Shown here: positions 10,173 to 50,184 of the stretch, in pieces
How positions within the stretch are numbered: position 1 is the first letter of the stretch
Layout: each line of letters begins with the position of its first letter
Source: Thermoproteota archaeon
Lineage (GTDB): Archaea; Korarchaeota; Korarchaeia; Korarchaeales; Korarchaeaceae
Direction: 5' to 3'
Assembly: GCA_027491915.1 (NCBI GenBank)
Contig: JAOZGC010000002.1
Span: forward strand, 1-64,000
Length of the DNA stretch: 64,000 bases
Notes under the pieces: model-generated
The model's input: the letters and a program-made list of their open reading frames with translations, nothing else
Databases searched by the model: none
Told to the model about the DNA's origin: nothing
Made by a program: the position numbers and the translations under genes

Positions 10173-10248
10173 GGGCCGGTGGTCTAGCGGCCATGACGCC
10201 GCCTTGACGAGGCGGAGGTCGGGGGTTCGAGTCCCCCCCGGCCCACCA
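10173..10248 (+). tRNA. tRNA-Val(GAC)
   Basis: Cloverleaf: GGGCCGG acceptor, CCGCC-TTGACGA-GGCGG anticodon arm, GTTCGAGTC, encoded ACCA. Confidence 0.97.
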
Positions 10249-16333: not shown

Positions 16334-16630
16334 ATGGGGGGGGTTGAGAGGGCCCTGATGGATCAGATCCTGATAAAGAGGATCGTCAGATCCATCCTTT
16401 TCGAGGGCGGGAGCTGGTCGCCCGGCGTCCTCCTGAGTTCGATAGTCGACCTCAGCGAGTCCCTCCCCGGAGCGGAAGATGGGATCGCGAGGAGCACCGT
16501 GGAGGAGATAAAGAAGCTGGTCGCCGAGGGTGATCCCGAGAACGTCCTGGTGATCTCCTCCTCGGTCACCAATCTGGTGAGGAGGGGAGTCCGCCACCTC
16601 GTGGCTGCTGGAGATCAAATCTCCTCGTGA
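16334..16630 (+). CDS. Hypothetical protein
   Basis: Open frame filling the gap with host-like codon usage. Confidence 0.5.
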   Translation: MGGVERALMDQILIKRIVRSILFEGGSWSPGVLLSSIVDLSESLPGAEDGIARSTVEEIKKLVAEGDPENVLVISSSVTNLVRRGVRHLVAAGDQISS

Positions 16631-16902
16631 GTGGCTATGTATATCTTCAACAAACGTTCATCTATAACTATCATCTCCCTTATATATTTCACGGTAGAAT
16701 AGGGAACAAGCACCAGACCTTTCCTATCTTGCTTCAACTTCTTCACGAGAGATTCTGCCGCTCCCTTGGCCTCCTTGACCACCAGGGAGAGGGCCTTCCC
16801 GGAGAGCTCGTCCACCACCAGATCCACCAGCTCTCCTATTATCAAGCCCCTATCCGTGACGACCCCCTTTCCGGCGAGCCTCCCTATCGAGTAACGCGGC
16901 AT
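16615..16902 (-). CDS. PRC-barrel domain protein
   Basis: LAGKGVVTDRGLIIGELVDLVVD..SG, LVPYSTV; start at ATG 16902, downstream of the tRNA. Confidence 0.85.
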   Translation of the reverse strand: MPRYSIGRLAGKGVVTDRGLIIGELVDLVVDELSGKALSLVVKEAKGAAESLVKKLKQDRKGLVLVPYSTVKYIREMIVIDERLLKIYIATHEEI

Positions 16903-16922: not shown

Positions 16923-17012
16923 TGGTGGGCCGGGGGGGACTCGAACCCCCGACCTCCGCCGTTTCCTCCCGCGGGAGTGAGGGCGGCGTCATGGCCGCTA
17001 GACCACCGGCCC
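16923..17012 (-). tRNA. tRNA-Val(CAC) with a 14-nt intron (16963-16976) at position 36/37
   Basis: Body nearly identical to tRNA-Val(GAC); CCGCC-CTCAC[TCCCGCGGGAGGAA]AC-GGCGG; bulge-helix-bulge-like fold CCTC/GAGG. Confidence 0.9.
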
Positions 17013-17067: not shown

Positions 17068-17088
17068 GGGGGCTCGGTACTCAAGATC
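17068..17088 (+). repeat. Left att direct repeat GGGGGCTCGGTACTCAAGATC
   Basis: 20/21 identical to 27836-27856. Confidence 0.9.
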
Positions 17089-17246
17089 AAATTTTTTGTC
17101 GTGATCAGGGGATAACCGGGATCTTCCCCTACCGAATAAGGGGACTTTCTAACGCTTATTAGCTTTTCCCCCGGGGGTACTGATCAACCCCCGCGTCGGG
17201 AGGAAGGAGTGGGGATTGGTCACCATTATTGAAATCCGGGATTTGG

Positions 17247-17365
17247 CCGCCAATTTTTCTCTGGATTCCCAGAGCGATCTGCCATAGCAGAGGCGCCAAA
17301 ATTATCGGCACCCGATAATTGCCGGTTTTTCTCGCGAAAAGGAGAGAGAAGAGCGGGTTTCGCTG
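17247..17365 (+). repeat. 119-bp inverted repeat, copy 1 (palindrome-rich)
   Basis: Exact reverse complement of 23853-23971. Confidence 0.95.
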
Positions 17366-18039
17366 TCGCGGTGAGGGTTGGGTGGTTCTGGACGCTCGAA
17401 GAATGGCATGCCACTTTCTTCCGGGGTCAAGATCCCCGATATCCCCTCGGCCAGGTCGGCCGCCGCCCCCTGGAGCCGCAGCAGGGAGGCGACCAGTAGG
17501 GCGGGGACCGCCGCGACCTCCACCAACATCAGCGCGACGACGGCGGCCGCCGCGGTCATGCCCACGAGATCCCAGGGGTCCGCCCCGGGGGGAGGGACCG
17601 GGGATCCACCCCCCCCGACCACCGCCAGGGCGGACTCCAAGGCCCCGGTCAGCGGGAGGAGCGAGACCGCCAGGGCGGAGGAGGTCGCGCCCACCCCGAT
17701 CGCGCCCACCACCCTGGCGGCCCTGGAGACCTCCCACCCCCTCCTCCTCAGGAGCGCCACCACGACGGGGGTGGCGGCGTCCGAGACCAGCCTCACCATC
17801 CCCTGGAGCCCGATCGTCCAATTCGACCAGAGCCCCGCCAGGGCGGCGGGCAGCCCCTCGATCAGCACCGCCGCCGCGGCGCCCAGGGCACCCGGCATCC
17901 CCAGGGCGGCGGGGATCACGCCCCCCGCCACCAGGGAGCCCAGGGGAAAGAGACCCATCATCCCCCCCAGGACGGCCCCCATCGCGGTCCTGGCGGCGAA
18001 CCAACTCCCGATCCCGATCCCCCCGGCTGGTCGACTCAC
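17302..18039 (-). CDS. Element-encoded Ala/Gly-rich multi-pass membrane protein
   Basis: Several hydrophobic segments; GTGA overlap with the upstream nuclease stop; 3' end runs into the 119-bp repeat. Confidence 0.6.
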   Translation of the reverse strand: MSRPAGGIGIGSWFAARTAMGAVLGGMMGLFPLGSLVAGGVIPAALGMPGALGAAAAVLIEGLPAALAGLWSNWTIGLQGMVRLVSDAATPVVVALLRRRGWEVSRAARVVGAIGVGATSSALAVSLLPLTGALESALAVVGGGGSPVPPPGADPWDLVGMTAAAAVVALMLVEVAAVPALLVASLLRLQGAAADLAEGISGILTPEESGMPFFERPEPPNPHRDSETRSSLSFSREKPAIIGCR

Positions 18040-18488
18040 AGCAGGCCCGCCCACCTGAGCCACCTCTCGAGGTTCCTGGGGGTCAACCTCCCCAGTCTCC
18101 CGCCCCTCCCCGGCCCGACCCACACCCAGGCCCGGGCCTTGGATAACAGGGTCTCGGGCCTCTTGGGAAATCCCAAGACCCCGACGACGCAGAAGGGCTC
18201 CGGGTGCTCCCTGCGAAAGGCCCTATTGACCCCCCTGATCAACCCATCGAGGCGGCGGGAGCCCTTAACCTCCACGAAGGCCCTGATTCCCCTCCCGATC
18301 AGCTCGATGTCATAGGGGGCGTGGTCCGACTGCGTTACAACCCTCACGTCCGGCAGGTTGAGCCGGGCCAAGATGATCTCCAGGGCCCCGGCAACCGTCC
18401 GCTCGAGCCTCCTACCCATCCTTTTGTTGTAGCCGCCGAGGGCGGACCTCGGGGAGACGCGGACCTCGGGGAGACCATTGTCATCCAC
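18036..18488 (-). CDS. PD-(D/E)XK nuclease (Hjc/restriction-like)
   Basis: GRRLE...APYDIEL...FVEVKGS; start uncertain. Confidence 0.75.
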   Translation of the reverse strand: MDDNGLPEVRVSPRSALGGYNKRMGRRLERTVAGALEIILARLNLPDVRVVTQSDHAPYDIELIGRGIRAFVEVKGSRRLDGLIRGVNRAFRREHPEPFCVVGVLGFPKRPETLLSKARAWVWVGPGRGGRLGRLTPRNLERWLRWAGLL

Positions 18489-18673
18489 CTTCCCACTACC
18501 CCCCCAACTGATCTCCCCCAGGGATCCCTTTTGTTTTATTTTTGAACGGAGTGAAAGTTTCCAATACCTCCAACTGCTTGGGGGAGGGAGGCAGCGGGGG
18601 GAAATCCGAGGCAGAACAGAGTCGGAGAGTGTGAGATGAAGGGCTGGGAGGAAAATGCGGCCGGAGATGGGCC

Positions 18674-20308
18674 TCAACTTCTGCCACCGGCTGCTGGAAG
18701 CCTCTTTATGACCCTGTCGTACTTGGACCCGTGGGCTCTGAGGTGGGCCCTGTAACGCTCGACCTCCAGGGTTCCGCCCAGGTTCCCCTCGCTGTCACGC
18801 CAGAACCTGAAGCCCATCACCCTGAGCTGGATCCTATTCTTCCTCGACCTCAGCATCTGCTCGACCTTGCTCGGGGCTATCGCCATCTGGGCTCGGGGTC
18901 CCCAGACCTGTCTGGCCCAGGCGGCGGGCTGAGAGATCGAGAAGCTGAAGACCTCACGCCCGTCGAGCGGGGCCCTGAGCTTGAAGATCTCAACGAATAA
19001 CGCGAGTTTTTGGGGGATGCGGTCGAGTATCATGGTCTCGGGAGGCGGCAGCTCTATCTCAAGCTGGTCCAGCTCGTCGAAGTTTTCCCCCTGTAGGAGC
19101 CGAGCCCTGGCCAGCCAGTACCTGTACCTCCTCCTGGCCTCCTCGAACTCCTCCTTGAGCTTCCTCCTGGGGACCAACTCAGCGTACAGCTTGCTGAGTC
19201 CGGCGGCATCTTCTGAACTCTTAGGTTCCGGCATCCTGAGACTCATGGGGGGAGGAAACGTCACGAGTTCGGCGTGCCCGCTCTTGGCGATGAAGATCCA
19301 CTTGCCGGGGATCATCCTGCGCATCGGAACCACCGTGTGGATGACGGCCTTGGAGATCGGGAAATACTTGGCCAGCTCCTTCCTCTGCCTCTCCTCCTTC
19401 AGGTTCATGGGGTGGATGAAGACCGCCTGAGTGTTATCGAGGAGAGTTTTGGGGACGCTCTGGACGTTCTGAACCTCGTAGAAGACCCTGGTAAGGGCTG
19501 TCCTGGTCTGTCTGAGCAGGGTCACGAAGTTCTCGATCCTCTCCCTCAGGTGCCAGGTGGAGCCCATCGCCCCGACCCTGGGGGCCACCTCCCTCAGCTC
19601 GCGGAAGTGCACGATCATCCTGGCGTCCTCTATAGCCTGAACCAGGTGCCCCATGAGGTTGTCCAGCACGACGTTGAGGGCGAACCTCCCCAGGTCCCGC
19701 ACGGAGGGCTTGAAGTACGCGCCGCTCAGCACCGTGAAGTCGCGCCTCTGGACGATCTCGACGAGCCTCTCGGGCTCGAGGGGCGATTCGTCTGCCAAGA
19801 ACCCAGAAGTGAGGAGGGCCAAGAGCCTGGGGCTCACCTTCTCCCCCCTCTTCCTGAGCAAGGCCTCGATTATGGCGTCGAGCTCCGCGTCCGGCCCGCC
19901 GGCCGAGTAATAGGCGTCGAACAGGTCCCTGGTCTCCGAGGGGCTCAGGAAACCCCCAAGGCTCCTAAAGTGCCCGAAGCTGAGCATCTTAATGCTCAGG
20001 GAGGCCAACCTGAACCTCGTGGGCACCGCATCCATGGCCAGGGGGAAGTTGAAGGTCAGGTACTCGGTATCCCATCCCCTCGGCTCCAGGCCCCTGGCCC
20101 TGAGGGAGAGGGCCTGGACCCCCCTCGCCGGGAGGTGAAGGGTCTCGTCCTCTCCCTTCACGTCGATCACGAGGGGGTGCCAGCCCCTCAGTGCCAGGAG
20201 CTCGAGGACTAGCTGAGCCGTCCACGTCTTGCTTGCGCCCCTTATCCCTATGAAGCCGATGCAGGACGTCTCCCGCGCCAGGATCTGCTGGAGGTACTCC
20301 TCGCTCAA
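18674..20308 (-). CDS. HerA/VirB4/FtsK-superfamily ATPase
   Basis: GIRGASKT (Walker A variant), LVIDVKGE, HFRELRE, LLRQTR, VQNVQSVPKTLLDN. Confidence 0.7.
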   Translation of the reverse strand: MSEEYLQQILARETSCIGFIGIRGASKTWTAQLVLELLALRGWHPLVIDVKGEDETLHLPARGVQALSLRARGLEPRGWDTEYLTFNFPLAMDAVPTRFRLASLSIKMLSFGHFRSLGGFLSPSETRDLFDAYYSAGGPDAELDAIIEALLRKRGEKVSPRLLALLTSGFLADESPLEPERLVEIVQRRDFTVLSGAYFKPSVRDLGRFALNVVLDNLMGHLVQAIEDARMIVHFRELREVAPRVGAMGSTWHLRERIENFVTLLRQTRTALTRVFYEVQNVQSVPKTLLDNTQAVFIHPMNLKEERQRKELAKYFPISKAVIHTVVPMRRMIPGKWIFIAKSGHAELVTFPPPMSLRMPEPKSSEDAAGLSKLYAELVPRRKLKEEFEEARRRYRYWLARARLLQGENFDELDQLEIELPPPETMILDRIPQKLALFVEIFKLRAPLDGREVFSFSISQPAAWARQVWGPRAQMAIAPSKVEQMLRSRKNRIQLRVMGFRFWRDSEGNLGGTLEVERYRAHLRAHGSKYDRVIKRLPAAGGRS

Positions 20309-21414
20309 TCGGTCTCCCTCCTTCTTCCCCCCTTGAGCAGGGCCTCCTCTATCTTACTCTTGGGGAGGCCCCTCTCGGTCACGATCGAGAAGGCCCTGTT
20401 GAGCACCTCTGGGTACTTGCTGGCTATCTGGCCGATGGTGTAGTTGGCGAAATCTATCATGGTCTGGACGAGGGCCCCGATCGGGAGGTCACCCTCGTTC
20501 ACGTGACCCACGCCTCTTTTGGATCTATTGGCGGCGATCCAGGCCCTGTACACCTCTTCGGGATTGTAGACCCTTATGGTCTTCTTCTCCACCTTCCAGG
20601 TAAGGAAAGGCTTCTTTCTCGTGTGATCCCCCACCTCTATCCCCGCGGCCCTGGCGAGGGGCAGGACGTTCGAGACGAAGGCGGTTATCTTATGCTCTAT
20701 CTCATAGAAGGCGAAGTATTGGGCCAGGACCTTGGCCAAGGCGTCAGCGATCTCCCTCCGGAGACTTTGATTTTCCTCGACGGATCCGACCGGGGTGACG
20801 TACTGAAACACGTCGACAGCTTTCTCTGGCATTATGTGAAGCTCCCGGCCGTCCAGAACCACTACCTTCCCGTCGAACTCGCCCCCCCTGATCTTCAGAA
20901 ACTGAAATACGCTCCCCTCCAGCCTCCCCTCGTAGAGGGTCCAACCGCGATTCCTGATCAACTCCCAGATGACGGCTGCCGCTTCCTTGGGAAGTTCCAT
21001 CGAGATCCCCCCCGTCTCATCATCCCTCCTCACTCGGTACTGGTTCCTCATTCTCTTGTTCTCGGCCCTGAGCCGCTCGATCTCTGCCTTGAGGCCCTCA
21101 ATCTTGCTGGACAATTCTCTGAACTTGGCCAACAGGGAGGAGGCCTCATTCTTGGTGAATTCGACGGAGAACCAATCAAAATATGTGCGGTGGAGCCTTT
21201 TCCTCACCTTGTCCAAGGCCCTCTGGGCCGCCGACGAGTCGACCTTCACCGACGAGTCGACCTTCAGGGGGACCAGGCTCTCCGTGGCCTCCCCCGCCTC
21301 TGCGGGGGTTTTTCGATCGTTTACGGGGGTATCGAGAGGACAGGCCCACCGAGATCTCCCCGCCAGACGTGAACGGTTTTCAGATCGGTGTGTGCGGGTT
21401 TCCGCCCGAGACAT
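20305..21414 (-). CDS. Element hypothetical protein with a coiled-coil segment
   Basis: ATG overlaps the recombinase stop (TGATG); heptads LSSKIEGLKAEIERLRAEN. Confidence 0.7.
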   Translation of the reverse strand: MSRAETRTHRSENRSRLAGRSRWACPLDTPVNDRKTPAEAGEATESLVPLKVDSSVKVDSSAAQRALDKVRKRLHRTYFDWFSVEFTKNEASSLLAKFRELSSKIEGLKAEIERLRAENKRMRNQYRVRRDDETGGISMELPKEAAAVIWELIRNRGWTLYEGRLEGSVFQFLKIRGGEFDGKVVVLDGRELHIMPEKAVDVFQYVTPVGSVEENQSLRREIADALAKVLAQYFAFYEIEHKITAFVSNVLPLARAAGIEVGDHTRKKPFLTWKVEKKTIRVYNPEEVYRAWIAANRSKRGVGHVNEGDLPIGALVQTMIDFANYTIGQIASKYPEVLNRAFSIVTERGLPKSKIEEALLKGGRRRETD

Positions 21415-21983
21415 CAACCGCCCACCCCCCTCAGAACCTCCAGGGCCTTGGCCTTCTGCGTATACCGGAGGAGGTGGCTCAGGTCGCTGTGTCCAAGGAT
21501 CTTTGCTATCAGTTGGGCGCTCACACCCCTCTCCGCCAGGCGGGTGACGAAGGCGTACCTCATGCTGTGCGTGTTCACTCCGAGGTGGTACCTGGCGAAG
21601 GCCTTGACCCGGTGCCGGTTCAACCCGCCCACCACGGGGGAGACCAACCTGAGGTCCTCCCGGGTCACGGACCTGGGGAGGACGACCGTCCTGGTCTGCG
21701 GGACGCGCTTCTTCTCGATCCGGACCTCCACCTCCCTCTCCCCCGTCTCGCAGAACCTCCTCAGGGCCTCGATGGCCTCCCCAACCCGGCACCCGTTCCT
21801 CAGCTGAATCAGGAGGACCAGGATGTCGGCGAGCCTCCCGATCCTCCTGCGTCCTCCCCTCCTGGCCGACTCCCTGGCCTCCCTGAGCATCCTGGTGAGC
21901 CTCCTCATCATCCCCTCGTAGTCGACCCCGCGGTCCCAGGTTCCAGGGACCCCGCGCCTCCGACCTGACGGTCTGGCCGTCAC
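21414..21983 (-). CDS. Small tyrosine recombinase (catalytic domain only)
   Basis: IQLRNGCRVGEA (R), EKKR (K), THSMRY (HxxR), ILGH, LLRYTQ (Y). Confidence 0.88.
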   Translation of the reverse strand: MTARPSGRRRGVPGTWDRGVDYEGMMRRLTRMLREARESARRGGRRRIGRLADILVLLIQLRNGCRVGEAIEALRRFCETGEREVEVRIEKKRVPQTRTVVLPRSVTREDLRLVSPVVGGLNRHRVKAFARYHLGVNTHSMRYAFVTRLAERGVSAQLIAKILGHSDLSHLLRYTQKAKALEVLRGVGG

Positions 21984-22087
21984 GCCACCTCACCTCCCCT
22001 TACTCTCGCCCCGATCGGATCCGGGGAGTCCTCCTGCGGTCTGCCTTCCCCTTAGGTCGATAAGGGGAGCGGAGGGTGCCCCGGTCC

Positions 22088-22411
22088 TCATCCGGACACC
22101 TCCCTCTTCTTCCTCTTCCCGGGAGGTCTGAGGACCTCGAAGTCGACTATCGCGGTCTTGACCAGCGCGATGCCCTCGCTCCTCCTCTTCCGCCCGCCCT
22201 GGAGGGTCCTCCCGTAGGTGAGAACGAGGTAACGTTCGTCTGAGGTGTTCAAGAAGCCGATGTACTCCAGCAGGATGGGTCTCTCGAGCTCCTCCTTCGG
22301 GTCTACAGAATCCTCGAAGGAGAAGTGGTCGAGGACGACCACCCTGACCAGCGCGCCCTCGGGCGCGTTCTCCCAGGGTGGCCTCTTTTCCCTCCTCTCC
22401 GACGCAGTCAA
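22088..22411 (-). CDS. Element hypothetical protein
   Basis: Co-oriented, coupled ORF; beta-rich. Confidence 0.6.
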   Translation of the reverse strand: MTASERREKRPPWENAPEGALVRVVVLDHFSFEDSVDPKEELERPILLEYIGFLNTSDERYLVLTYGRTLQGGRKRRSEGIALVKTAIVDFEVLRPPGKRKKREVSG

Positions 22412-22788
22412 GATCGGACACCTCCCTCTCCCCCCGGCCGGCCGTCTGCCGCCGACCCGACCCGAGCGAGGAGGATCTCCCCGCCCAACCGGGCGGCCAA
22501 GTCGGCCAGGCCGCCCACGTGCGGCGGATCCAAGAGCCTCCTCTTGCCCAGTCCCAGCACGACGGGGGGTCCCCCGGACCTGAGCCTGACCCTGGCGTAG
22601 AATCCATCCCTCCAGAACAGCTCGACGATCGACTCGAGGGTGACCCGCTCCAGCAGGAGCCGGGAGCCCCTCGGCAGCTCGGTCAGCACCCGAACCAAGC
22701 CCTCCCTCCGTCTCCGCATCCCATCACCCCACGTAGTCCAACTCACCCCCATCTCTCCCCCCTCCCCTCCCTCCCGCCAGATCGTCAA
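22408..22788 (-). CDS. Element hypothetical protein (start uncertain)
   Basis: Co-oriented ORF overlapping its neighbours. Confidence 0.5.
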   Translation of the reverse strand: MTIWREGGEGGEMGVSWTTWGDGMRRRREGLVRVLTELPRGSRLLLERVTLESIVELFWRDGFYARVRLRSGGPPVVLGLGKRRLLDPPHVGGLADLAARLGGEILLARVGSAADGRPGGEGGVRS

Positions 22789-23419
22789 CGAACCTCTCGA
22801 TCAGCTCTGGGGTCTCCCTCCTCCTGCTCTCGAGGAACCGCCCCACCCTCTCGGAGTAATCTCTCAGCCAGGAAGCCCTCGGGAACGCCCTCACGAGCTC
22901 CCCATAGGATCGGAGGTGCATGCCCGCCAGCACCTCGTCCGGGACGGAACTGAAGAGCCTCAGCAGGGTCGAGATCCTCCTGAGGTGGACCGCGGACTCT
23001 TCCCCGACCCGGAGGTCGATCACCACGACCTCCCTCCCATCGGAGAGTCCCAGCTTCCCACCCTCGAGGATCTCCGAGACGAAGTCGAATAGCGGGGGGA
23101 GGAAGAGGTAGGCCCGCCTCAGGGGTTTCTCCCTCCCCCGGACGACCCTGACGTTCAGGATCGCCAGGGTCGGGAGCACCACCTCGAGCCTGAGCTCCAA
23201 CTCACGGGGGTTCGGGAGGTCCCTGACCCTCAGCCTCCTGTCGACGATCACCGGGAGGGTCGGGCTCGGGGGGGATCCCCAACCCTCCTCTCCCCTGATT
23301 TCGAAGAACCCAGCATCCCCCGGTCCGACGATGAAGATGCTCTTCCCCCCCAAGAGGCGCCTGAGGTGCCTCGTGAGGTCGGAGGTGGGGAGGAGCTCGA
23401 AGGTTCGGACGGAGCTCAC
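22724..23419 (-). CDS. Element hypothetical protein
   Basis: GTGA-coupled to the 724-aa gene. Confidence 0.65.
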   Translation of the reverse strand: MSSVRTFELLPTSDLTRHLRRLLGGKSIFIVGPGDAGFFEIRGEEGWGSPPSPTLPVIVDRRLRVRDLPNPRELELRLEVVLPTLAILNVRVVRGREKPLRRAYLFLPPLFDFVSEILEGGKLGLSDGREVVVIDLRVGEESAVHLRRISTLLRLFSSVPDEVLAGMHLRSYGELVRAFPRASWLRDYSERVGRFLESRRRETPELIERFVDDLAGGRGGGRDGGELDYVG

Positions 23420-25590
23420 GGATTGACACCTCCCACCTCTCCCCCCGGGAGGAGGGGCTCGGCCTTCCCGGTCTGGATCAGAACGCGGGCCACCTCCCTG
23501 GGGAGCCGGACGACCCTCCCGGGGGAGAAGGGGCCGGCGGTCCTCAAGCTTCCGTCCTCCCCCACCCCAACGACGAAGGACTCGACCTCCTCCAAGATGC
23601 GGACCACGACCCTCCCGTCGTCCACGTACTCCACCAGGACCCTGGTAGTCGACTCTCTCTCCCCACAGAGTTCGCAGACCCCGCCGGAAACCGACTCCCT
23701 CTTAAGGATGACTGCGCCGGGGTGGCCCGAGAGGTCACCCAGGCAGGACGGGCAGACGTCGATCCACTCCCGGGTCCGGGCGGCCGGCGCCTCCGGGGGT
23801 TCGGGTTGAGGGGAGGGACGAGAAGGTGGAGGGGTGGCTTTCAACTCTGAGTCAGCGAAACCCGCTCTTCTCTCTCCTTTTCGCGAGAAAAACCGGCAAT
23901 TATCGGGTGCCGATAATTTTGGCGCCTCTGCTATGGCAGATCGCTCTGGGAATCCAGAGAAAAATTGGCGGACGAATTCGGAATTCTCAATATTCCGGTG
24001 ATCGTTGATCCCGACCACCACCCGCATCCGCGGGTGATACCTCCTGAGCCTCCCCAGAGCCTCATCGAGCGAGAACTCCTCGAGGATCTCCGACGCCGAC
24101 AAACGCCTCCTTCTCCCGCCGATCTGATCCGGCAGCCAGATGTGGATGAGAGCCCGCCGTCGGTCCTCCGGGTCCTCCCTCCTGTCGACGTAGCCCGCCG
24201 CGAGCAGGGGTCGAATGTATCGCTTCCGGATCCGGTCGGAGGAGATCCTCTCCCCGCGGACCTCGAAGTACCGGTCCCCGATCTCGTCGTAGCCGACATC
24301 CTCCTGTCCTTCCTCGGCGAGAGGTTTTAAGATGTCCCAGTAAAACCGGAGGACGTCCTCCGCAACCCCCGCGAAGGTGGACTCGTAGACCCTCTGAAAG
24401 AGTTCCACCGCGTCGACGTAGTCCTGAAACGTTGCTAGGATGGAGCTGGCCCCGTCTCCCTCCATCACAACGGGCCTCTGGTTAGCCCTCAGGGCGGCAA
24501 AAATTTTAACCAAAATCAGAAGTTTCCCCAGGTCCCGCATGTCACGCGGGAACCTCATTCCGTAGGCCTTGGCGACGATTGGACCGAACAGGACCCTCAC
24601 CCTGAGCCCTTTCTCGAACTCGTCTCGGAGCCACCCGACATATCGTCTGATCGTGTCGCGGAGGAGTCTCAGCTCCGGATTGTCGAATTCCTCGGGGTAC
24701 CCGGCCTCCAGCCCTATTTTCTCCCCCGCGGCCTGGTACTTATGCCCCCCCATCTTAGGGGTCAGTGTGAGCGTCCTCGTCTCTAGGTAGTTGAGGGGCT
24801 GCTCGGAGCAGAAGATCGCGACGGGCCAGCCCCTCAGGACCACGGTCTGGGTTCGGAGGGACCCCCCCCTCGGCCTATCCGCGAACTTCCAGACGATCTC
24901 GCGTCGATCGTGGCTGAGCAGGGGCTTGAGCCGGTTGAAGGTCTCCAGGTGTGGGGGCTCGAGGAAGAGAAGCACCTTCCCATCGAGGTCGACGACCGTC
25001 CTAAGCCCAGCGACGACCTCGTAGTACGCTTCTTTACTCCTCCTCCTCAACTCCCGCAGGAGGGCGGGATCGACCGGCTGGCCCGAGCTGTCCTCCAGCC
25101 TCCCGCGCTCGTGGACGAGCGCAGTGGGGCTCATCCCCCCGAGCCACCAGACATCCTCCTCGGGGAGGAGGGAGAGGGCCATGATCGCAGTGTAGGTCTT
25201 CCCGACGGACTTCGGGCCCAGGAGGGCCAAGTTCAGGGGGTCGACGTAGGCCGACAGGCCCGCGAGGAACACCGCTAACCCCGTGACCTCATCCTCCCGC
25301 ACGTAGTGACCCAAATAGGCGAGGATGACTGGGAGGGGATCTGGCATGAGGGCTAGGCTGGTTTTCCGCGAGACCTCGGACCTCAGCCACCCGTGCCAGT
25401 CGACCGCGGGCACCCCGAGCGCCTCCTCGACGTCCCGAGGGTCCACCTGTTCGAGGAGGAGGTAGGGTCCGATTTCTCTATCCTCCTTAGCACCCGAGCG
25501 CCTGAGCCAGAACGCCGCCGTAGGGCCGTCCCGCCAGAGCACCTCGATCCGCCCGTCACAGGCGACCGCGACGACCCGCTCAGCCTCCAT
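23416..25590 (-). CDS. Element replication protein: P-loop (AAA+/helicase-like) domain, wHTH, Cys4 motif and C-terminal GINS B-like domain
   Basis: LLGPKSVGKT Walker A, LLFLE, LETR, wHTH (YIRPLLAAGYV...DPEDRRR), CPSC..CELC, VRILEEV..GPFSPGRVVRLPREVARVLIQTGKAE. Confidence 0.75.
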   Translation of the reverse strand: MEAERVVAVACDGRIEVLWRDGPTAAFWLRRSGAKEDREIGPYLLLEQVDPRDVEEALGVPAVDWHGWLRSEVSRKTSLALMPDPLPVILAYLGHYVREDEVTGLAVFLAGLSAYVDPLNLALLGPKSVGKTYTAIMALSLLPEEDVWWLGGMSPTALVHERGRLEDSSGQPVDPALLRELRRRSKEAYYEVVAGLRTVVDLDGKVLLFLEPPHLETFNRLKPLLSHDRREIVWKFADRPRGGSLRTQTVVLRGWPVAIFCSEQPLNYLETRTLTLTPKMGGHKYQAAGEKIGLEAGYPEEFDNPELRLLRDTIRRYVGWLRDEFEKGLRVRVLFGPIVAKAYGMRFPRDMRDLGKLLILVKIFAALRANQRPVVMEGDGASSILATFQDYVDAVELFQRVYESTFAGVAEDVLRFYWDILKPLAEEGQEDVGYDEIGDRYFEVRGERISSDRIRKRYIRPLLAAGYVDRREDPEDRRRALIHIWLPDQIGGRRRRLSASEILEEFSLDEALGRLRRYHPRMRVVVGINDHRNIENSEFVRQFFSGFPERSAIAEAPKLSAPDNCRFFSRKGERRAGFADSELKATPPPSRPSPQPEPPEAPAARTREWIDVCPSCLGDLSGHPGAVILKRESVSGGVCELCGERESTTRVLVEYVDDGRVVVRILEEVESFVVGVGEDGSLRTAGPFSPGRVVRLPREVARVLIQTGKAEPLLPGGEVGGVNP
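23853..23971 (-). repeat. 119-bp inverted repeat, copy 2 (inside the replication gene)
   Basis: Exact reverse complement of 17247-17365. Confidence 0.95.
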
Positions 25591-25708
25591 CGCCGCCCAC
25601 CTCCCTCGCCCTCTCGACCTTGGCCAACTCCGCCCTCCGCTCCGCCTCCTCGAGAATTTCCAAGAGCTTCCTCTCCACCGGCGAGAGGAAGGACCCCAGA
25701 ACCGTCAT
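25580..25708 (-). CDS. Small element protein
   Basis: ATG with GGAGG upstream; overlaps the start of the rep gene. Confidence 0.45.
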   Translation of the reverse strand: MTVLGSFLSPVERKLLEILEEAERRAELAKVERAREVGGDGG

Positions 25709-25855
25709 CCCTCCCTTATTTTCTGTTAAACCCTCAAACGTCAAGCCAAACGTTGGTTCAAGTTTAATTACACCCGGGCGGGAACCGGGCCTGGCCGCGG
25801 GGAGGACCCGGTCGGACTTGCGACCCACACGCGCGCGAGAGCCGCCCATCCATTC

Positions 25856-26038
25856 TCACCCCTCACCCGCGGCCTTTATCCCGACCCTCTCCAACTCCCT
25901 CCTGACGAGGTCTCGGATCAGCTCCGACCTCGTTGTGTAGCCTAGTTTTTTGATCAATCTCCATGTCGCGGCATCTAAGTCGTACGGAACCCGCACGAAC
26001 CAAATAATAGACCTCCCACCAGCCTGAGGCCTTCCCAT
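25856..26038 (-). CDS. Ribbon-helix-helix (CopG-like) regulator
   Basis: WFVRVP..LD...LGYTTRSELIRDLVRR. Confidence 0.8.
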   Translation of the reverse strand: MGRPQAGGRSIIWFVRVPYDLDAATWRLIKKLGYTTRSELIRDLVRRELERVGIKAAGEG

Positions 26039-26105
26039 ATCTCCCTTTCTCCCGGGGGGATCGCACCCCGCGTGGGCGGCGTCAAGCGATCCGCCCTGAA
26101 ACTAG

Positions 26106-26459
26106 CTAGCCTCTCCTTATATTCTCTTCATATTTTCCCATGCTTATAATCATTATATTCGAAAAGTGGCCTCCAATGGTCATTTGTGGACATACGCCTC
26201 CCCTGAGGGTTCGGGAGATGTCGCCATTAGGATTGAGCGCCTCCACCGCCTCCCCCACCCTCATGGCGTTCCTCAGCTGGATCAGGAGGATCATCCTGTT
26301 CCTCAGGCCGGCGAGCTTCTTTCTCCCCCTGGTCTGCCTGGCCTCCTGGGCCAGGGCCCGGATGTCCCTCTCCAGGGCCCGGCGGGCGGCGTCGTAGTCG
26401 ACCCCCCGGGCCCAGGTCCCCCTCTTCGCCTCCCCCCCTAGGCGCGTTCCTCTTCGCAT
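26106..26459 (-). pseudogene. Truncated paralog of the small tyrosine recombinase (N-terminal part only)
   Basis: GTWARGVDY...LLIQLRNAMRVGEAVEAL matches 21414-21983 (GTWDRGVDY...LLIQLRNGCRVGEAIEAL); similarity ends near 26235. Confidence 0.75.
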
Positions 26460-26602
26460 AATCTCCAAAAACGTAGATGAACATCTCCCTTGGGCATCAT
26501 CTCCGTAGATCCGCCCCTCTCGGGGGAACCCCGGGCGCCCCGCATCCGAATGCTGAGCCCCGCCAGAGCCGACGCGCCGCCGCGGGGGGTGGGGGTAACC
26601 TC

Positions 26603-27745
26603 TCACTCCCTCCCGTTCTGACCCTTCTCCCTCAACACCTCTGCCAACGCCCTTATCAGGGGTTCCCTCACCCTCGGGTCGCTCAAGAGCCTCAGGATCA
26701 TCTCCTCGAACTCCCTCTTCTCCCTGGCCGCCTCCCTCCTGGCCCTCTCGGTCAGCGGGTAGCCGCACCTCAGGCAGAACTCGGCCTCCCTGGGGTTCAC
26801 GTATCCGCACTCCGGGCACGTCAGGGGCTTGAGGGCCTCCACCCTCCTCCTATCCTCCCTCTCGGGAACCTCCATCCCGTAGGCCTTGAGTATCGCCCTC
26901 TCGGCGTCCCTCCCCGAGAGGTGGACGTAGACCGAGGCCATCTTGGAGTCCGGGGTCCAGCCGGCGAAGACCTTCAGCTCCTGCTCCGTCAGCCTGGTGG
27001 CCAGGTGGGTCAGCCTGGTGTGCCTCAGGGTGTGGGGGTGCACCCTCCTCCCCAGGCCGGCCTTCCTGGCGGCGTACCTCACGACCGCGGCCACCCCCCC
27101 CTCGGACATCCCCTCCACCCGGCCGCCCCTCCCCACCCTGGCGAACAGCGGGGCGTCGGGGTTCCCCGGGTCCGGGTGCACCAGGAGCCACTCCCTCAGG
27201 TAGGGAGCCGAGTTGACCAGGGGGACCGTCCTCTCCCCGGTCTTCCCGGACACCCTGATCTTGTACCCGTACCCGGTGCGCTCCAGGTCCCTCATCCTGA
27301 GGGAGCACAGCTCCCCCACCCTCAGGGCCCCCTCGTACAGGACCGCTATCGCCGCCTTGGCCCTGGGGGAGCGGGCGGCCCTCACCAGGGCCTCCACCTC
27401 CTCCGGGGAGAGGACCTCGTCCCTCAGGTTCCTCCTCCTGGCCCTGGGGGAGGATTTCCACCAGGCCAGGGGGTTGTCCCCGGGCCTGAGCCAGGAGTAG
27501 AAGGCCTTCAGCCTGGTCAGGTAGGTGTCCACCGTCGCCCCGGAGAGGGACGAGGCCAGGGTGTCCCTGAACCTCCTCAGGTCCCCCTCCGTCGCCCCCA
27601 GCGGGTCGATCCCCTCCCCCGCCAGCCTCTCCAGGGCCAGGGTGTAGACGTCCCTGGAGTGGGGGTTGGTCAGCCCCCTCTCCGAGAAGAACCTCTCCAC
27701 GGCCTCCCTCAGCTCTGGGGGGAACCTGGCCAGCCTCCTGGCCAC
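26603..27745 (-). CDS. int: Tyrosine integrase with C-terminal zinc ribbon
   Basis: GALRVGEL, SGKTG, HPHTLRHTR, AGW, SVYVH, CPEC..CLRC; frame is open to 27832, GTG 27745 preferred. Confidence 0.95.
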   Translation of the reverse strand: MARRLARFPPELREAVERFFSERGLTNPHSRDVYTLALERLAGEGIDPLGATEGDLRRFRDTLASSLSGATVDTYLTRLKAFYSWLRPGDNPLAWWKSSPRARRRNLRDEVLSPEEVEALVRAARSPRAKAAIAVLYEGALRVGELCSLRMRDLERTGYGYKIRVSGKTGERTVPLVNSAPYLREWLLVHPDPGNPDAPLFARVGRGGRVEGMSEGGVAAVVRYAARKAGLGRRVHPHTLRHTRLTHLATRLTEQELKVFAGWTPDSKMASVYVHLSGRDAERAILKAYGMEVPEREDRRRVEALKPLTCPECGYVNPREAEFCLRCGYPLTERARREAAREKREFEEMILRLLSDPRVREPLIRALAEVLREKGQNGRE

Positions 27746-27835
27746 CTTCGTCTCCTTCTTCTCCCTGGCCGGCCTGCCCAACCAACCACCCGCGTCGCCC
27801 GCGCCCGATCGGATAAAAAGAGATCGCCACAAAAT

Positions 27836-27856
27836 GGGGGCTCAGTACTCAAGATC
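27836..27856 (+). repeat. Right att direct repeat GGGGGCTCAGTACTCAAGATC
   Basis: 20/21 identical to 17068-17088; overlaps the sRNA D guide, D box and terminal stem. Confidence 0.9.
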
Positions 27857-27895
27857 CTCATCAGGAGATCAGGGGGCCGAGGTCCTCATCGCCCC
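27837..27895 (-). ncRNA. Box C/D guide sRNA; D guide predicts Cm34 of tRNA-Leu(CAA)
   Basis: Minus strand: GGGGC-GATGA(C)-GGACCTCGGCCCC-CTGA(D')-TCTCC-TGATGA(C')-GGATCTTGAGTA-CTGA(D)-GCCCC; terminal stem; 11-nt complement to the tRNA-Leu anticodon arm. Confidence 0.88.
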
Positions 27896-27948
27896 GTCCC
27901 CCGGGACGCGTCAACGATAAAATACCCACCGGCGGATTCCGCCGTCGG

Positions 27949-28308
27949 ATGGGCGACCAGATACCCCCCGAAATAGGGCGGATAATCAATATCTTATTTG
28001 TAAATGACGGAGGTCATAGAAAGAACAATCTGAGTGAGGTCCAACATAAAATTAAGGAAATTCGAGAGAGGGCCGACTCGGATTTCATCTCCGGTCTCGC
28101 CTTGGCCGCAGAGGGGGCGCTGACGGCCGTTGTGGAGGGGAGGGAACTCAGCCTCCCGGCGAGGATCCTGCGAGGACGGCGGAAGACTCTCCTCGAGGCT
28201 ATCTCAAGGTGGAGGCTCCCTCCGGCGCGCCTAGAGATGGAGGAGGGCTACATCTCCTTCTGGAGAGAGGTGGCCAAGATTGCCGGCATTGATCATCGCG
28301 GGAGGTGA
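27949..28308 (+). CDS. Hypothetical protein
   Basis: Open frame with host-like codon usage. Confidence 0.55.
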   Translation: MGDQIPPEIGRIINILFVNDGGHRKNNLSEVQHKIKEIRERADSDFISGLALAAEGALTAVVEGRELSLPARILRGRRKTLLEAISRWRLPPARLEMEEGYISFWREVAKIAGIDHRGR

Positions 28309-29387
28309 TACCTCCCCCTCCCCTTCTCCAACAATCCCCTGTTGACGTACTCTTCGAGAATCCTCCTAGCCTCCGTTATGGTGGTTCCCAACGCCCTGGA
28401 TGCCTCTATTATCGACACTCCATTGGACCTCGAGGCCAGGGACGCCAGCTCATCCGGGAGAGATCCCTTGGCCAGTTCCCTCGTTCCCCCTATCAGCCTC
28501 AGGAGGTCATCCTCGGTCGGCACGGTCCTGGACTGCTCCACCGCCAGGTGGGCGAGCACCATCCTGGCCAGCCTCAGCAGCCTCCTGGGGTTTCCTCTGG
28601 CCATTTTATTCATTTCTTTTATTAATTTTTCCGTGAATGGTGCTAAATTATCCCCATTTTCCGCTTTTATTCTATAATTTCTGAGCCTCTTCCTTATGAT
28701 CTCGACGGCCAGCTCGTCCGTGATCTCCGGGACCCTCATGACCTCCGCCCGCTGAATGAGGCTTCCCAACCTTGGCACCGCGGCGGGCACGCAGGAGATC
28801 AGTATGACCTTACCATCGCGCAGGGAAGAGTGGACCTCCCCTAGGAAGGTCACGAAGGCCGTTGAATCCCTCTTGGTGCCGCTGACCACAACGTTCTCTA
28901 TCTCATCCAGCATGAGCAGTAGCCTCGGGATCTTGTTTGCAGCCTCCGCCACCCTCCTCGCCAGTATCTTTATTCCCCTACTTCCACCTTCTCTGTGGCC
29001 CTTCCCAAAGAGCGGAAATCTCGGTCTGCCGAATGCACGCAGTATCTTCTCGGCCGACTCTAGGGCGTCGTCCGAATCTATCTTTACGTAGATCCTCTCG
29101 GCGTCGGCTAGGCTCTCCGACACGTATCTCAACTTCTGAGTCTTACCCATTCCAAATCTTCCTATTAATATGATTAATTTTTTTCCGTTTCCGCTCAGAG
29201 AATCCCTTATTACTTTCAGAAGCCTTTCATCAAACTCGGTCTTCACGTGGAGCGCGGCCACCTCGGGGGCCCCCTCGCTCGATAGGAACGAGAAGGGGTT
29301 GCCCCTCAGGGACCACCTGAGGTACCCCGCCTGGACCACCGCGCTCCTCTCTCCCTCGAACATCTCGGCCGCACCAGCCGACCCCAA
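28293..29387 (-). CDS. AAA+ ATPase with C-terminal wHTH
   Basis: NPF, GRFGMGKT, LMLDEIE, GNPRRLL. Confidence 0.8.
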   Translation of the reverse strand: MGSAGAAEMFEGERSAVVQAGYLRWSLRGNPFSFLSSEGAPEVAALHVKTEFDERLLKVIRDSLSGNGKKLIILIGRFGMGKTQKLRYVSESLADAERIYVKIDSDDALESAEKILRAFGRPRFPLFGKGHREGGSRGIKILARRVAEAANKIPRLLLMLDEIENVVVSGTKRDSTAFVTFLGEVHSSLRDGKVILISCVPAAVPRLGSLIQRAEVMRVPEITDELAVEIIRKRLRNYRIKAENGDNLAPFTEKLIKEMNKMARGNPRRLLRLARMVLAHLAVEQSRTVPTEDDLLRLIGGTRELAKGSLPDELASLASRSNGVSIIEASRALGTTITEARRILEEYVNRGLLEKGRGRYHLPR

Positions 29388-50096: not shown

Positions 50097-50184
50097 TGGT
50101 GCGGGGGGTGGGATTCGAACCCACGAACCCCTACGGGAGCGGATCTTGAGTCCGCCGCCTTTGACCTGGCTCGGCAACCCCCGC
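50097..50184 (-). tRNA. tRNA-Leu(CAA)
   Basis: Minus strand: GCGGGGG...GCGGA-CTCAAGA-TCCGC, long variable arm, GTTCGAATC, ACCA. Confidence 0.97.

Follow-up and report, generated by a model that had tools for sequence, protein, structure and literature searches.

Archaeal tyrosine recombinases integrate their elements into tRNA genes, intergenic regions and protein-coding genes, according to the available text of a 2021 review (PMC8371274). A locus from a member of the Korarchaeaceae raises the question of whether the gene of a small guide RNA can serve the same purpose. The locus is in the first 64,000 nt of contig JAOZGC010000002.1 (assembly GCA_027491915.1), a stretch which is hereafter called the window; the source genome, G000, comprises 1,116,564 bp in four contigs. 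The window contains a segment of about 10.77 kb which is bracketed by short direct repeats and carries an integrase gene at its right end, next to a box C/D small RNA (sRNA) gene of which the right repeat forms the 3' part. We consider it highly probable that this arrangement results from the genuine site-specific integration of an element of about 10.77 kb into the sRNA gene. The features at the center of this reading are the following.

17068-17088, plus strand: left attachment repeat (attL core), which reads GGGGGCTCGGTACTCAAGATC
17089-27835: body of the element, 10,747 bp between the repeats, or 10,768 bp with one repeat included
27836-27856, plus strand: right attachment repeat (attR core), which reads GGGGGCTCAGTACTCAAGATC and is the 3' end of the intact sRNA gene
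27836-27895, minus strand: box C/D sRNA of about 59-60 nt, with its four boxes read from the sequence

The flanking repeats with a G/A variant, which had been noticed in an initial annotation of the window, are found exactly where they had been placed. Their consensus is the 21-bp sequence GGGGGCTC(G/A)GTACTCAAGATC; the two copies are on the same strand, 10768 bp apart from start to start, and the identity between them stops at 21 bp on the left and right alike. The sole mismatch, at position 9 of the repeat, is the second base of box D. When up to two mismatches are allowed, the 21-bp core gives two matches in the window, compared to 0.00 expected from 100 dinucleotide shuffles, and the same two matches are the only ones in the whole genome (the reversed pattern, used as a control, gives 0). 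The right copy, which had been described as the 3' part of a C/D sRNA, includes box D, the 3' strand of the stem and, of the 12 bases of the D guide, the last 10. The left copy, read on the minus strand, is made of D-guide bases 3-12, box D in the form CCGA and the 3' stem strand; the C, D' and C' boxes are absent upstream of this fragment.

In C/D sRNAs, the C box (consensus RUGAUGA) is near the 5' end and the D box (CUGA) is near the 3' end. The RNA of the window reads as follows: a stem strand GGGGC, a G, the C box AUGAGGA, a 10-nt D' guide (CCUCGGCCCC), the D' box CUGA, a loop UCUC, the C' box CUGAUGA, a 12-nt D guide (GGAUCUUGAGUA), the D box CUGA and the stem strand GCCCC(C). The boxes are in the canonical C-D'-C'-D order, and the C box departs from the consensus by one change (U5 to G). 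The guide spacers, of 10 nt from C to D' and 12 nt from C' to D, are within the expected range of about 10-13 nt, and the terminal stem GGGGC/GCCCC has 5 bp. Two A/T-rich stretches surround the gene.

27917-27924, minus strand: TATA-like box TATTTTAT, outside the element and about 25 nt ahead of the sRNA 5' end, as read from the sequence
27813-27819, minus strand: T-rich TATA-like stretch CTTTTTATCC, located after the sRNA 3' end and before the integrase start

Comparable A/T boxes also precede the homologues of the sRNA in other genomes. Since the TATA-like box is outside the element, the sRNA would keep its own promoter. The CTTTTTATCC stretch could be both a terminator for the sRNA and a promoter for the integrase.

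Rfam gives no match at the sRNA locus at gathering thresholds. A permissive scan of positions 27760-27980 returns 18 weak matches, 17 of which are to C/D box families, and 15 of these lie over 27838-27899 on the minus strand. The comparison with 39 other genomes of the same class is more informative: the 15-mer GATCTTGAGTACYGA, which consists of guide and box D, is present once in 12 of them, and G000 is the only genome to have it twice (the control gives 0). All 12 homologues have the C, D', C' and D boxes, and their ends are complementary despite differing in sequence (GGGGC/GCCCC, CCAC/GUGG, GGCGG/CCGCC, GAGGGG/CCCCUC). RNAalifold, run on 11 sequences, finds a consensus stem of 3 bp with compensatory changes at all three pairs, which is modest evidence because the stem is short. 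When a 465-nt query was used, it matched four genomes of one sister genus, and the similarity was confined to the sRNA. In metagenomes, at least 120 contigs match exactly the 22-nt pattern C'-guide-D (TGANGNNGATCTTGAGTACYGA). In most of the 80 metagenome loci used for reading (L071-L150), a canonical C box (GUGAUGA) and a D' box are recognizable ahead of the pattern; a few loci end at a contig edge or show no clear C box. The genome encodes fibrillarin (278.9 bits, contig C1). As far as sequence comparison can tell, these results support the assignment of the RNA to the box C/D sRNAs as a genuine and conserved member.

C/D ribonucleoproteins (RNPs) methylate the target nucleotide that faces the fifth base of the guide, counted upstream from box D. 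The D guide of the sRNA forms Watson-Crick pairs at 11 of its 12 positions with the anticodon arm (positions 31-41) of a tRNA-Leu encoded elsewhere in the window, and the nucleotide opposite the fifth guide base is its wobble nucleotide, C34.

50097-50184, minus strand: tRNA-Leu(CAA), outside the element, the methylation target predicted from the D-guide pairing

The sRNA is thus predicted to guide the 2'-O-methylation of C34 in tRNA-Leu(CAA). The D guide would also pair with tRNA-Leu(UAA), with one G-U pair at position 34, and the genome has two other perfect 12-mers for it, neither of which falls in an annotated tRNA or rRNA gene. In Pyrobaculum, guides that target C34 or U34 of a single tRNA have been documented (PMC6009581). 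With at least 120 metagenome contigs, the guide for Cm34 of tRNA-Leu(CAA) appears to be among the most widely conserved archaeal C/D sRNAs. In its metagenome neighborhood, 126 open reading frames (ORFs) of at least 180 aa lie within 700 nt of an sRNA, and 25 of them encode MatE-family transporters.

The next point is whether the DNA between the repeats is really an addition to the chromosome. The ORFs flanking the element were translated and placed on stretches of 14-20 kb around the sRNA in eight relatives. The flanking features used are the following.

16615-16899: left-flank gene of a PRC-barrel protein
16923-17012, minus strand: intron-bearing tRNA, probably Val-CAC, near-identical outside the anticodon region to the tRNA-Val(GAC) at 10173-10248
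28293-29387: right-flank gene of an AAA ATPase

The ATPase gene has an orthologue less than 700 nt from the sRNA in all eight loci. The orthologue of the PRC-barrel gene is directly beyond the sRNA, at 80-520 nt, in three of them (G019, G015 and G004); it is 3.1-3.3 kb away in three others and about 8 kb away in one, and it was not found in the last of the eight. In G019, the order is ATPase gene, sRNA, tRNA and PRC-barrel gene, followed by more orthologues of the left flank. A tRNA that starts with GGGCCGGTGGTCTAG follows the sRNA on the same strand, at about 100-125 nt, in 4 of the 12 homologue loci, and ARAGORN identifies the one of G015 as tRNA-Val(GAC). In the window, such a tRNA is found 55 nt downstream of the displaced sRNA fragment (the left repeat), again on the same strand. 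The order of the ATPase and PRC-barrel genes and the neighboring tRNA thus indicate that the left repeat marks the former 3' end of the sRNA gene and that positions 17089-27835 are extra DNA. The initial annotation had proposed that an empty site be sought in related genomes. The sister genera do show an uninterrupted sRNA between orthologues of both flank genes, a comparison that holds at the genus-to-genus level, and this supports the view that the 10.77-kb segment is an insertion relative to them.

The window has two near-identical copies of the tRNA-Val gene, at 16923-17012 (minus strand) and 10173-10248 (plus strand). The former has a short intron and an apparent CAC anticodon, and ARAGORN leaves it untyped.

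The best candidate for the enzyme that inserted the segment is encoded at its right end.

26603-27832, minus strand: tyrosine integrase, XerC/XerA-like, with a C-terminal zinc ribbon (PF00589)

This is the only intact long tyrosine-recombinase ORF. It matches PF00589 with 74.3 bits (cut-off 27.1, E 1.4e-20) and the integrase family phrog_1 with an E-value of 3e-37. In HMMER alignments, its motifs LRVGEL, GKTGER, HTLRH, GW and VYVH align with XerD (1a0p) and XerA (4a8e). The aligned catalytic set is R, K, H-x-x-R, W and Y, with a tryptophan in place of the second histidine; this assignment uses the residues which we take to be the catalytic ones of XerD. The protein also matches the solved XerA of Pyrococcus abyssi (PDB 4a8e) with an E-value of 1.6e-14. 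Unlike XerA, which is a chromosome dimer resolvase, it scores only 80.2 bits against the XerA equivalog model, whose cut-off is 220, and it is therefore not the chromosomal XerA; the genome has a separate Xer-like gene on contig C2. The nearest named relatives are the integrases of two archaeal pleomorphic viruses, ThalV2 and Geoglobus acetivorans pleomorphic virus 1, with 38-40% identity over about 65% of the length, and the element shares no gene with ThalV2 besides the integrase. No relative of the integrase was found in the viral_contigs collection.

The first possible start codon of the integrase, a TTG, is 4 nt from the repeat. The alignments with homologues begin at residue 8-29, and the homologous protein of genome G002 starts at the equivalent of residue 18-23, which suggests that translation starts further downstream. 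The real start is probably the TTG at 27781, 54 nt from the repeat, which gives a protein of 392 aa. The integrase had been said to abut the right repeat: it is indeed 4 nt away if the first TTG is used, and 54 nt away if the likely start is used. In SSV-type integrases, by definition, the attachment site of the element (attP) is part of the integrase ORF, which is split upon integration (PMC7253208). This self-splitting type can be ruled out here: the ORF is intact and the core is 4-54 nt upstream of its start.

These results are consistent with a plasmid-like element of about 10.77 kb having entered the chromosome by site-specific recombination, a reaction most likely catalyzed by the tyrosine integrase (26603-27781/27832, minus strand). 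The recombination core would be the 21-bp sequence, which is wholly inside the sRNA gene and takes in box D with the 3' stem strand as well as the last 10 bases of the D guide. Both genes, that of the sRNA and that of the integrase, have the same direction, the sRNA coming first, and it is the integrase-side copy of the core that completes the sRNA. In the proposed scheme, the core copy which the element carries beside its integrase gene would have been joined to the body of the sRNA gene, so that the RNA stays complete. The other copy, with CCGA, would have been left 10.77 kb away, 55 nt upstream of the tRNA-Val. The initial annotation had likened this geometry to the 3'-end replacement observed with tRNA genes, and the likeness holds: the target is complete, the displaced end is at the far junction, and the same arrangement is seen in a related element of G002. 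We further infer that the large integrase rather than a smaller recombinase of the same element is responsible, that excision would still be possible, and that the sRNA is expressed and methylates C34. The mechanism is familiar; what is new is the class of the target, the gene of a methylation-guide sRNA, and it is so far a single case.

The share of the rebuilt core that comes from the element depends on the crossover point. The box D of the rebuilt sRNA is CUGA, and that of the displaced fragment is CCGA. A crossover on the sRNA-body side of the mismatch would mean that CCGA was the original chromosomal form and that CUGA came with the element. With a crossover on the other side, CUGA would be the chromosomal form and CCGA that of the element. 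The difference may also be a later mutation. CCGA is a native variant, which is found in both the D and D' boxes of the sRNA of G015. A second candidate C/D sRNA of G000 (contig C4, around position 569071, plus strand) has the C box AUGAGGA and the D box CCGA, which suggests that such variants are normal for this organism.

Why such a gene would be chosen can plausibly be explained by its conservation. The guide is bound to match the anticodon arm of a tRNA and box D is fixed by the RNP, so that the stretch would be about as conserved as a tRNA gene, and this would account for its use as a landing site. A different idea, according to which the core mimics the tRNA-Leu(CAA) gene and the enzyme is in fact a tRNA-Leu integrase, was rejected. 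Only the 10-11 bases of the guide complement are identical to the tRNA gene, and the reconstructed attP sequence on either side of these bases is unrelated to the tRNA. In addition, no tRNA was found in the loci of integrase homologues that were compared, save one doubtful call of an intron-bearing tRNA-Gln, 1.2 kb past the integrase of G022.

Homologues of the integrase show how variable the targets of this clade are. Strong homologues are found at 13 loci, distributed over 12 of the 42 other genomes of the phylum. In G010, G002 and G047, the integrase gene comes directly after the stop codon of a gene for a TFS-type zinc-ribbon protein. The integrase of G002, a genome of the same family, is 45-46% identical to that of the window; it abuts the 3' end of the TFS gene (PF01096, E 6.3e-21), and the last codons of this gene (SWREFS and the stop) recur 14,173 bp away.

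L233 (contig G002:C6), 3853-3876 and 18016-18038: 14.2-kb element of G002, with the TFS gene end duplicated

Like the element of the window, the G002 element has an integrase with the same zinc ribbon, whose gene is oriented in the same way toward its target; the target end is rebuilt, and the displaced end is found 14.2 kb away. Unlike in the window, the target is a protein-coding gene, and the duplicated end has synonymous differences and 13 exact bases. As its sequence reads, G002 is a case of the same 3'-end replacement, applied to a protein gene.

Two other elements, both in the same genome of another genus (L230 on contig G013:C3 and L231 on contig G013:C7), share with the window the integrase (54-55% identity), a ribbon-helix-helix protein, an ATPase, a 213-aa protein and the order of these genes. 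Two related genomes have the locus of G013:C7 uninterrupted, and the latter stops resembling them within about 10-30 nt past the stop codon of xerA, in the TATA-like sequence AAAACCTTTAAT. Repeat searches gave a convincing pair of attachment (att) repeats in G002 alone among the relatives; those of G013:C3, G001 and G022 gave 11-13-mers at chance level. The initial annotation had suggested comparing the att repeats of integrase homologues with C/D boxes. The homologues could be collected; no overlap with the sRNA was recognized in the loci read by eye, and the att site of G002 is the end of a TFS gene. Together, the TFS, xerA-adjacent and sRNA sites suggest that the clade switches targets freely, the sRNA gene being one of them.

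Other explanations have to be weighed, and one of them concerns the enzyme. The element encodes a second recombinase, of which a truncated paralogue is also present.

21414-21983, minus strand: second, small tyrosine recombinase of 189 aa (phrog_9208, E 3.7e-35; PF00589, C-terminal part)
About 26236-26420, minus strand: truncated paralogue of the small recombinase, with 78-90% DNA identity to 21763-21944, 4.5 kb apart

The boundaries would be the same if this small recombinase had catalyzed the integration, the large enzyme being devoted to dimer resolution or belonging to a nested second element. The strong match of the small protein to a viral integrase family and the existence of its paralogue fit this scenario, as does the fact that the best curated matches of the large integrase are Xer-type resolvases. 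However, the large integrase is directly beside the rebuilt target, which is the usual position of an integrase, and its homologue in G002 is likewise beside the TFS end. Both G013 elements share the large integrase, whereas a relative of the small recombinase was not found in their loci (tblastn E <= 1e-5). Catalysis by the small recombinase therefore appears improbable. It is still less probable that the overlap with the sRNA is incidental, i.e., that the integrase reads a short DNA sequence upstream of tRNA-Val and that the encoded sRNA is irrelevant to the choice of target or to the host. Relatives of the integrase are found at unrelated targets (the TFS end in G002, next to TFS genes in G010 and G047, past xerA in G013:C7), the clade has no evident preference for C/D sRNA genes and no second case of an sRNA target was found among the loci compared. 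Against this, the whole 21-bp core is inside the gene and ends exactly at the 3' stem of the sRNA. The copy carried by the element preserves every functional part, which is a hallmark of selection for a working target, as with tRNA and TFS genes, and the target stretch is exceptionally conserved, considering its exact matches in metagenomes.

The boundaries themselves could also be questioned: the repeat would not be an att pair, the segment would have been acquired by homologous recombination or transposition, and the left copy would be due to chance or to an unrelated partial duplication. The mismatch between the copies and the failure to find the att sites of the closest relatives as repeats could be taken in this sense, but the idea is hardly credible. 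A 21-mer with up to two mismatches is expected 0.00 times, and the copies bracket exactly the segment that is absent in the relatives, with an integrase at one end. None of the 25 longest inverted-repeat pairs, out of 61, is a pair of terminal repeats of the segment. Site-specific integration into the sRNA gene, catalyzed by the large integrase, is the explanation retained here.

A number of observations weigh against this explanation or limit it. The empty site is a comparative one, which is taken from other genera and is not exact to the nucleotide, and the two copies of the repeat have one mismatch. GC content is no marker of the element, which is at 63-70% for a genome mean of about 65%, the flanks being low (55-58%). 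The best Rfam match of the sRNA, to the full snoPyro_CD model, has 27.4 bits (E 4.8e-4) for a gathering score of 45, and no convincing target was found for the D' guide. This sRNA was not recognized by eye upstream of any of the 14 loci of integrase homologues. The only other junction that can be read, at G013:C7, has a target adjacent to xerA; the left end of this element is off the contig, which leaves its att core undefined. Recurrence is also lacking in the material compared: there is no second copy of the 15-mer in the 12 other genomes or in the 80 metagenome loci, no relative of the integrase in these 80 loci (tblastn E <= 1e-3), and the 25 Pfam families, out of 47, that occur most often in the 126 neighboring ORFs mentioned above do not include Phage_integrase. 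The metagenome loci are short and mostly from distant lineages, so that this negative result limits the claim and does not refute it. Finally, the truncated recombinase paralogue and a 133-nt inverted duplication in the element suggest that the latter may be a fixed, decaying remnant.

The element can be compared with several published systems. A literature search, whose scope did not extend to subscription-only papers, found no paper that names a C/D sRNA gene as a chromosomal attachment site (attB), in agreement with the earlier suspicion that this class of site is undescribed. The words sRNA and snoRNA do not occur in the available text of the review of archaeal tyrosine recombinases (PMC8371274). 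A survey of thaumarchaeal elements lists 68 sites, of which 39 are in tRNA genes, 15 are intergenic and 14 are in protein-coding genes; none is named as an sRNA, a word which is absent from the main text of that survey (PMC6563490).

The closest parallel is with non-splitting elements of the pNOB8 or XerC-like type that target tRNA genes: as in the available description of these elements, the integrase is beside one att copy, the direct repeats are short, the RNA gene is rebuilt by a 3' end carried by the element and the displaced end is at the far junction (PMC8371274). The difference is that the target here is a C/D sRNA gene and that the 21-bp core corresponds to guide, box D and stem rather than to an anticodon or T arm. 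The thaumarchaeal elements, as surveyed in the available text, also have short att sites (the median is 17 bp, compared to 21 bp here), non-tRNA targets and restored gene ends, and their boundaries were likewise validated against related genomes; unlike in that survey, the target here is an sRNA gene, which is outside its three classes of sites (PMC6563490). The 724-aa protein of the window element also has relatives in Nitrososphaeria, as well as in Bathyarchaeia. In bacteria, the tmRNA gene ssrA serves as a phage attachment site. Similarly, the phages that integrate into ffs, the gene of the 4.5S RNA, use a conserved and structured small RNA gene as att site, with an identical core in the phage and the host (PMC12540744, available text). 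Unlike the case of the window, the ffs and ssrA phages belong to another domain of life and their targets to another class of RNA.

The other genes of the element, several of which are conserved in the two G013 elements, are the following.

18036-18677, minus strand: 213-aa protein, conserved in both G013 elements, with a weak NOV_C match
18674-20308, minus strand: 544-aa ATPase, 76-82% identical in both G013 elements
20305-21400, minus strand: conserved C-terminal part of a 562-aa ORF, related in both G013 elements from residue 284 or so onward
22724-23419, minus strand: 231-aa protein with no family match and a weak relative in one G013 element
23416-25590, minus strand: 724-aa P-loop protein, candidate replication protein, of an uncharacterized family typical of archaeal mobile elements
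25856-26038, minus strand: small ribbon-helix-helix (CopG-type) protein, conserved in both G013 elements

In its N-terminal part, which is probably non-coding, the 562-aa ORF overlaps the gene of the small recombinase. The language-model neighbors of the 544-aa protein are HerA/DUF87-type ATPases, which is only a lead. No capsid gene was recognized among the genes of the element, which would thus be a plasmid-like integrative element of an undescribed family.

The 724-aa protein has only hypothetical relatives, in 37 other loci, nearly all from Bathyarchaeia, Nitrososphaeria or other Thermoproteota; one locus of this family is in the viral_contigs collection. Among its language-model neighbors, a domain named after a Methanothermobacter plasmid gene is present in 10-27% of the members, again no more than a lead. 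The 38 loci of the family (L191-L228) include a tRNA gene in six cases, and an integrase related to that of the window in only two, which suggests that replication and integration modules are exchanged independently. A search of loci L191-L242 with a regular expression for C/D sRNAs gave 0 matches; the expression recovers only 10 of the 80 known positives and this result is uninformative. The 724-aa protein marks an element family in Bathyarchaeia and Nitrososphaeria (L192-L228).

The element also contains a 133-nt inverted repeat, 96% complementary; one of its arms (17233-17365) is close to the left end, and the other (23853-23985) falls within the 724-aa ORF. This repeat, which is possibly a rearrangement scar, occurs nowhere else in the genome. 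Between the truncated recombinase and the integrase, a 93-nt block (26472-26563) is 90% identical to positions 76049-76141 of contig C3 of G000; it would be either the remnant of a coding sequence or a small, conserved stretch of non-coding DNA.

It is tempting to generalize from this case and to propose that C/D sRNA genes are a recurrent and overlooked class of archaeal att sites, which forms part of the sites described as intergenic, and that an element may also rewrite the sRNA it enters. At present, this generalization is rather doubtful. If it were true, the best candidates would be the guides to tRNA anticodon loops, in which guide and box D are frozen by two constraints, and some of the 15 intergenic sites among the 68 thaumarchaeal ones could be in unannotated sRNA genes. 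The CUGA/CCGA swap could then switch the strength of the kink-turn, and hence the formation of Cm34 in tRNA-Leu(CAA), so that the decoding of UUG would be tied to the carriage of the element.

The single case has implications of its own. It is a concrete argument for running C/D sRNA models over the attachment sites classed as intergenic. A 21-bp core located in a near-universal small gene, together with a compact integrase, could serve as a portable integration system in archaea for which genetic tools are lacking. The finding leaves the accepted view of the integration mechanism unchanged. For archaeal integrases, it would add a new kind of landing site to tRNA genes, the ends of protein genes and intergenic DNA: a guide to an anticodon arm followed by an invariant box D, which is conserved across phyla and would offer to an element the same advantages as a tRNA gene.

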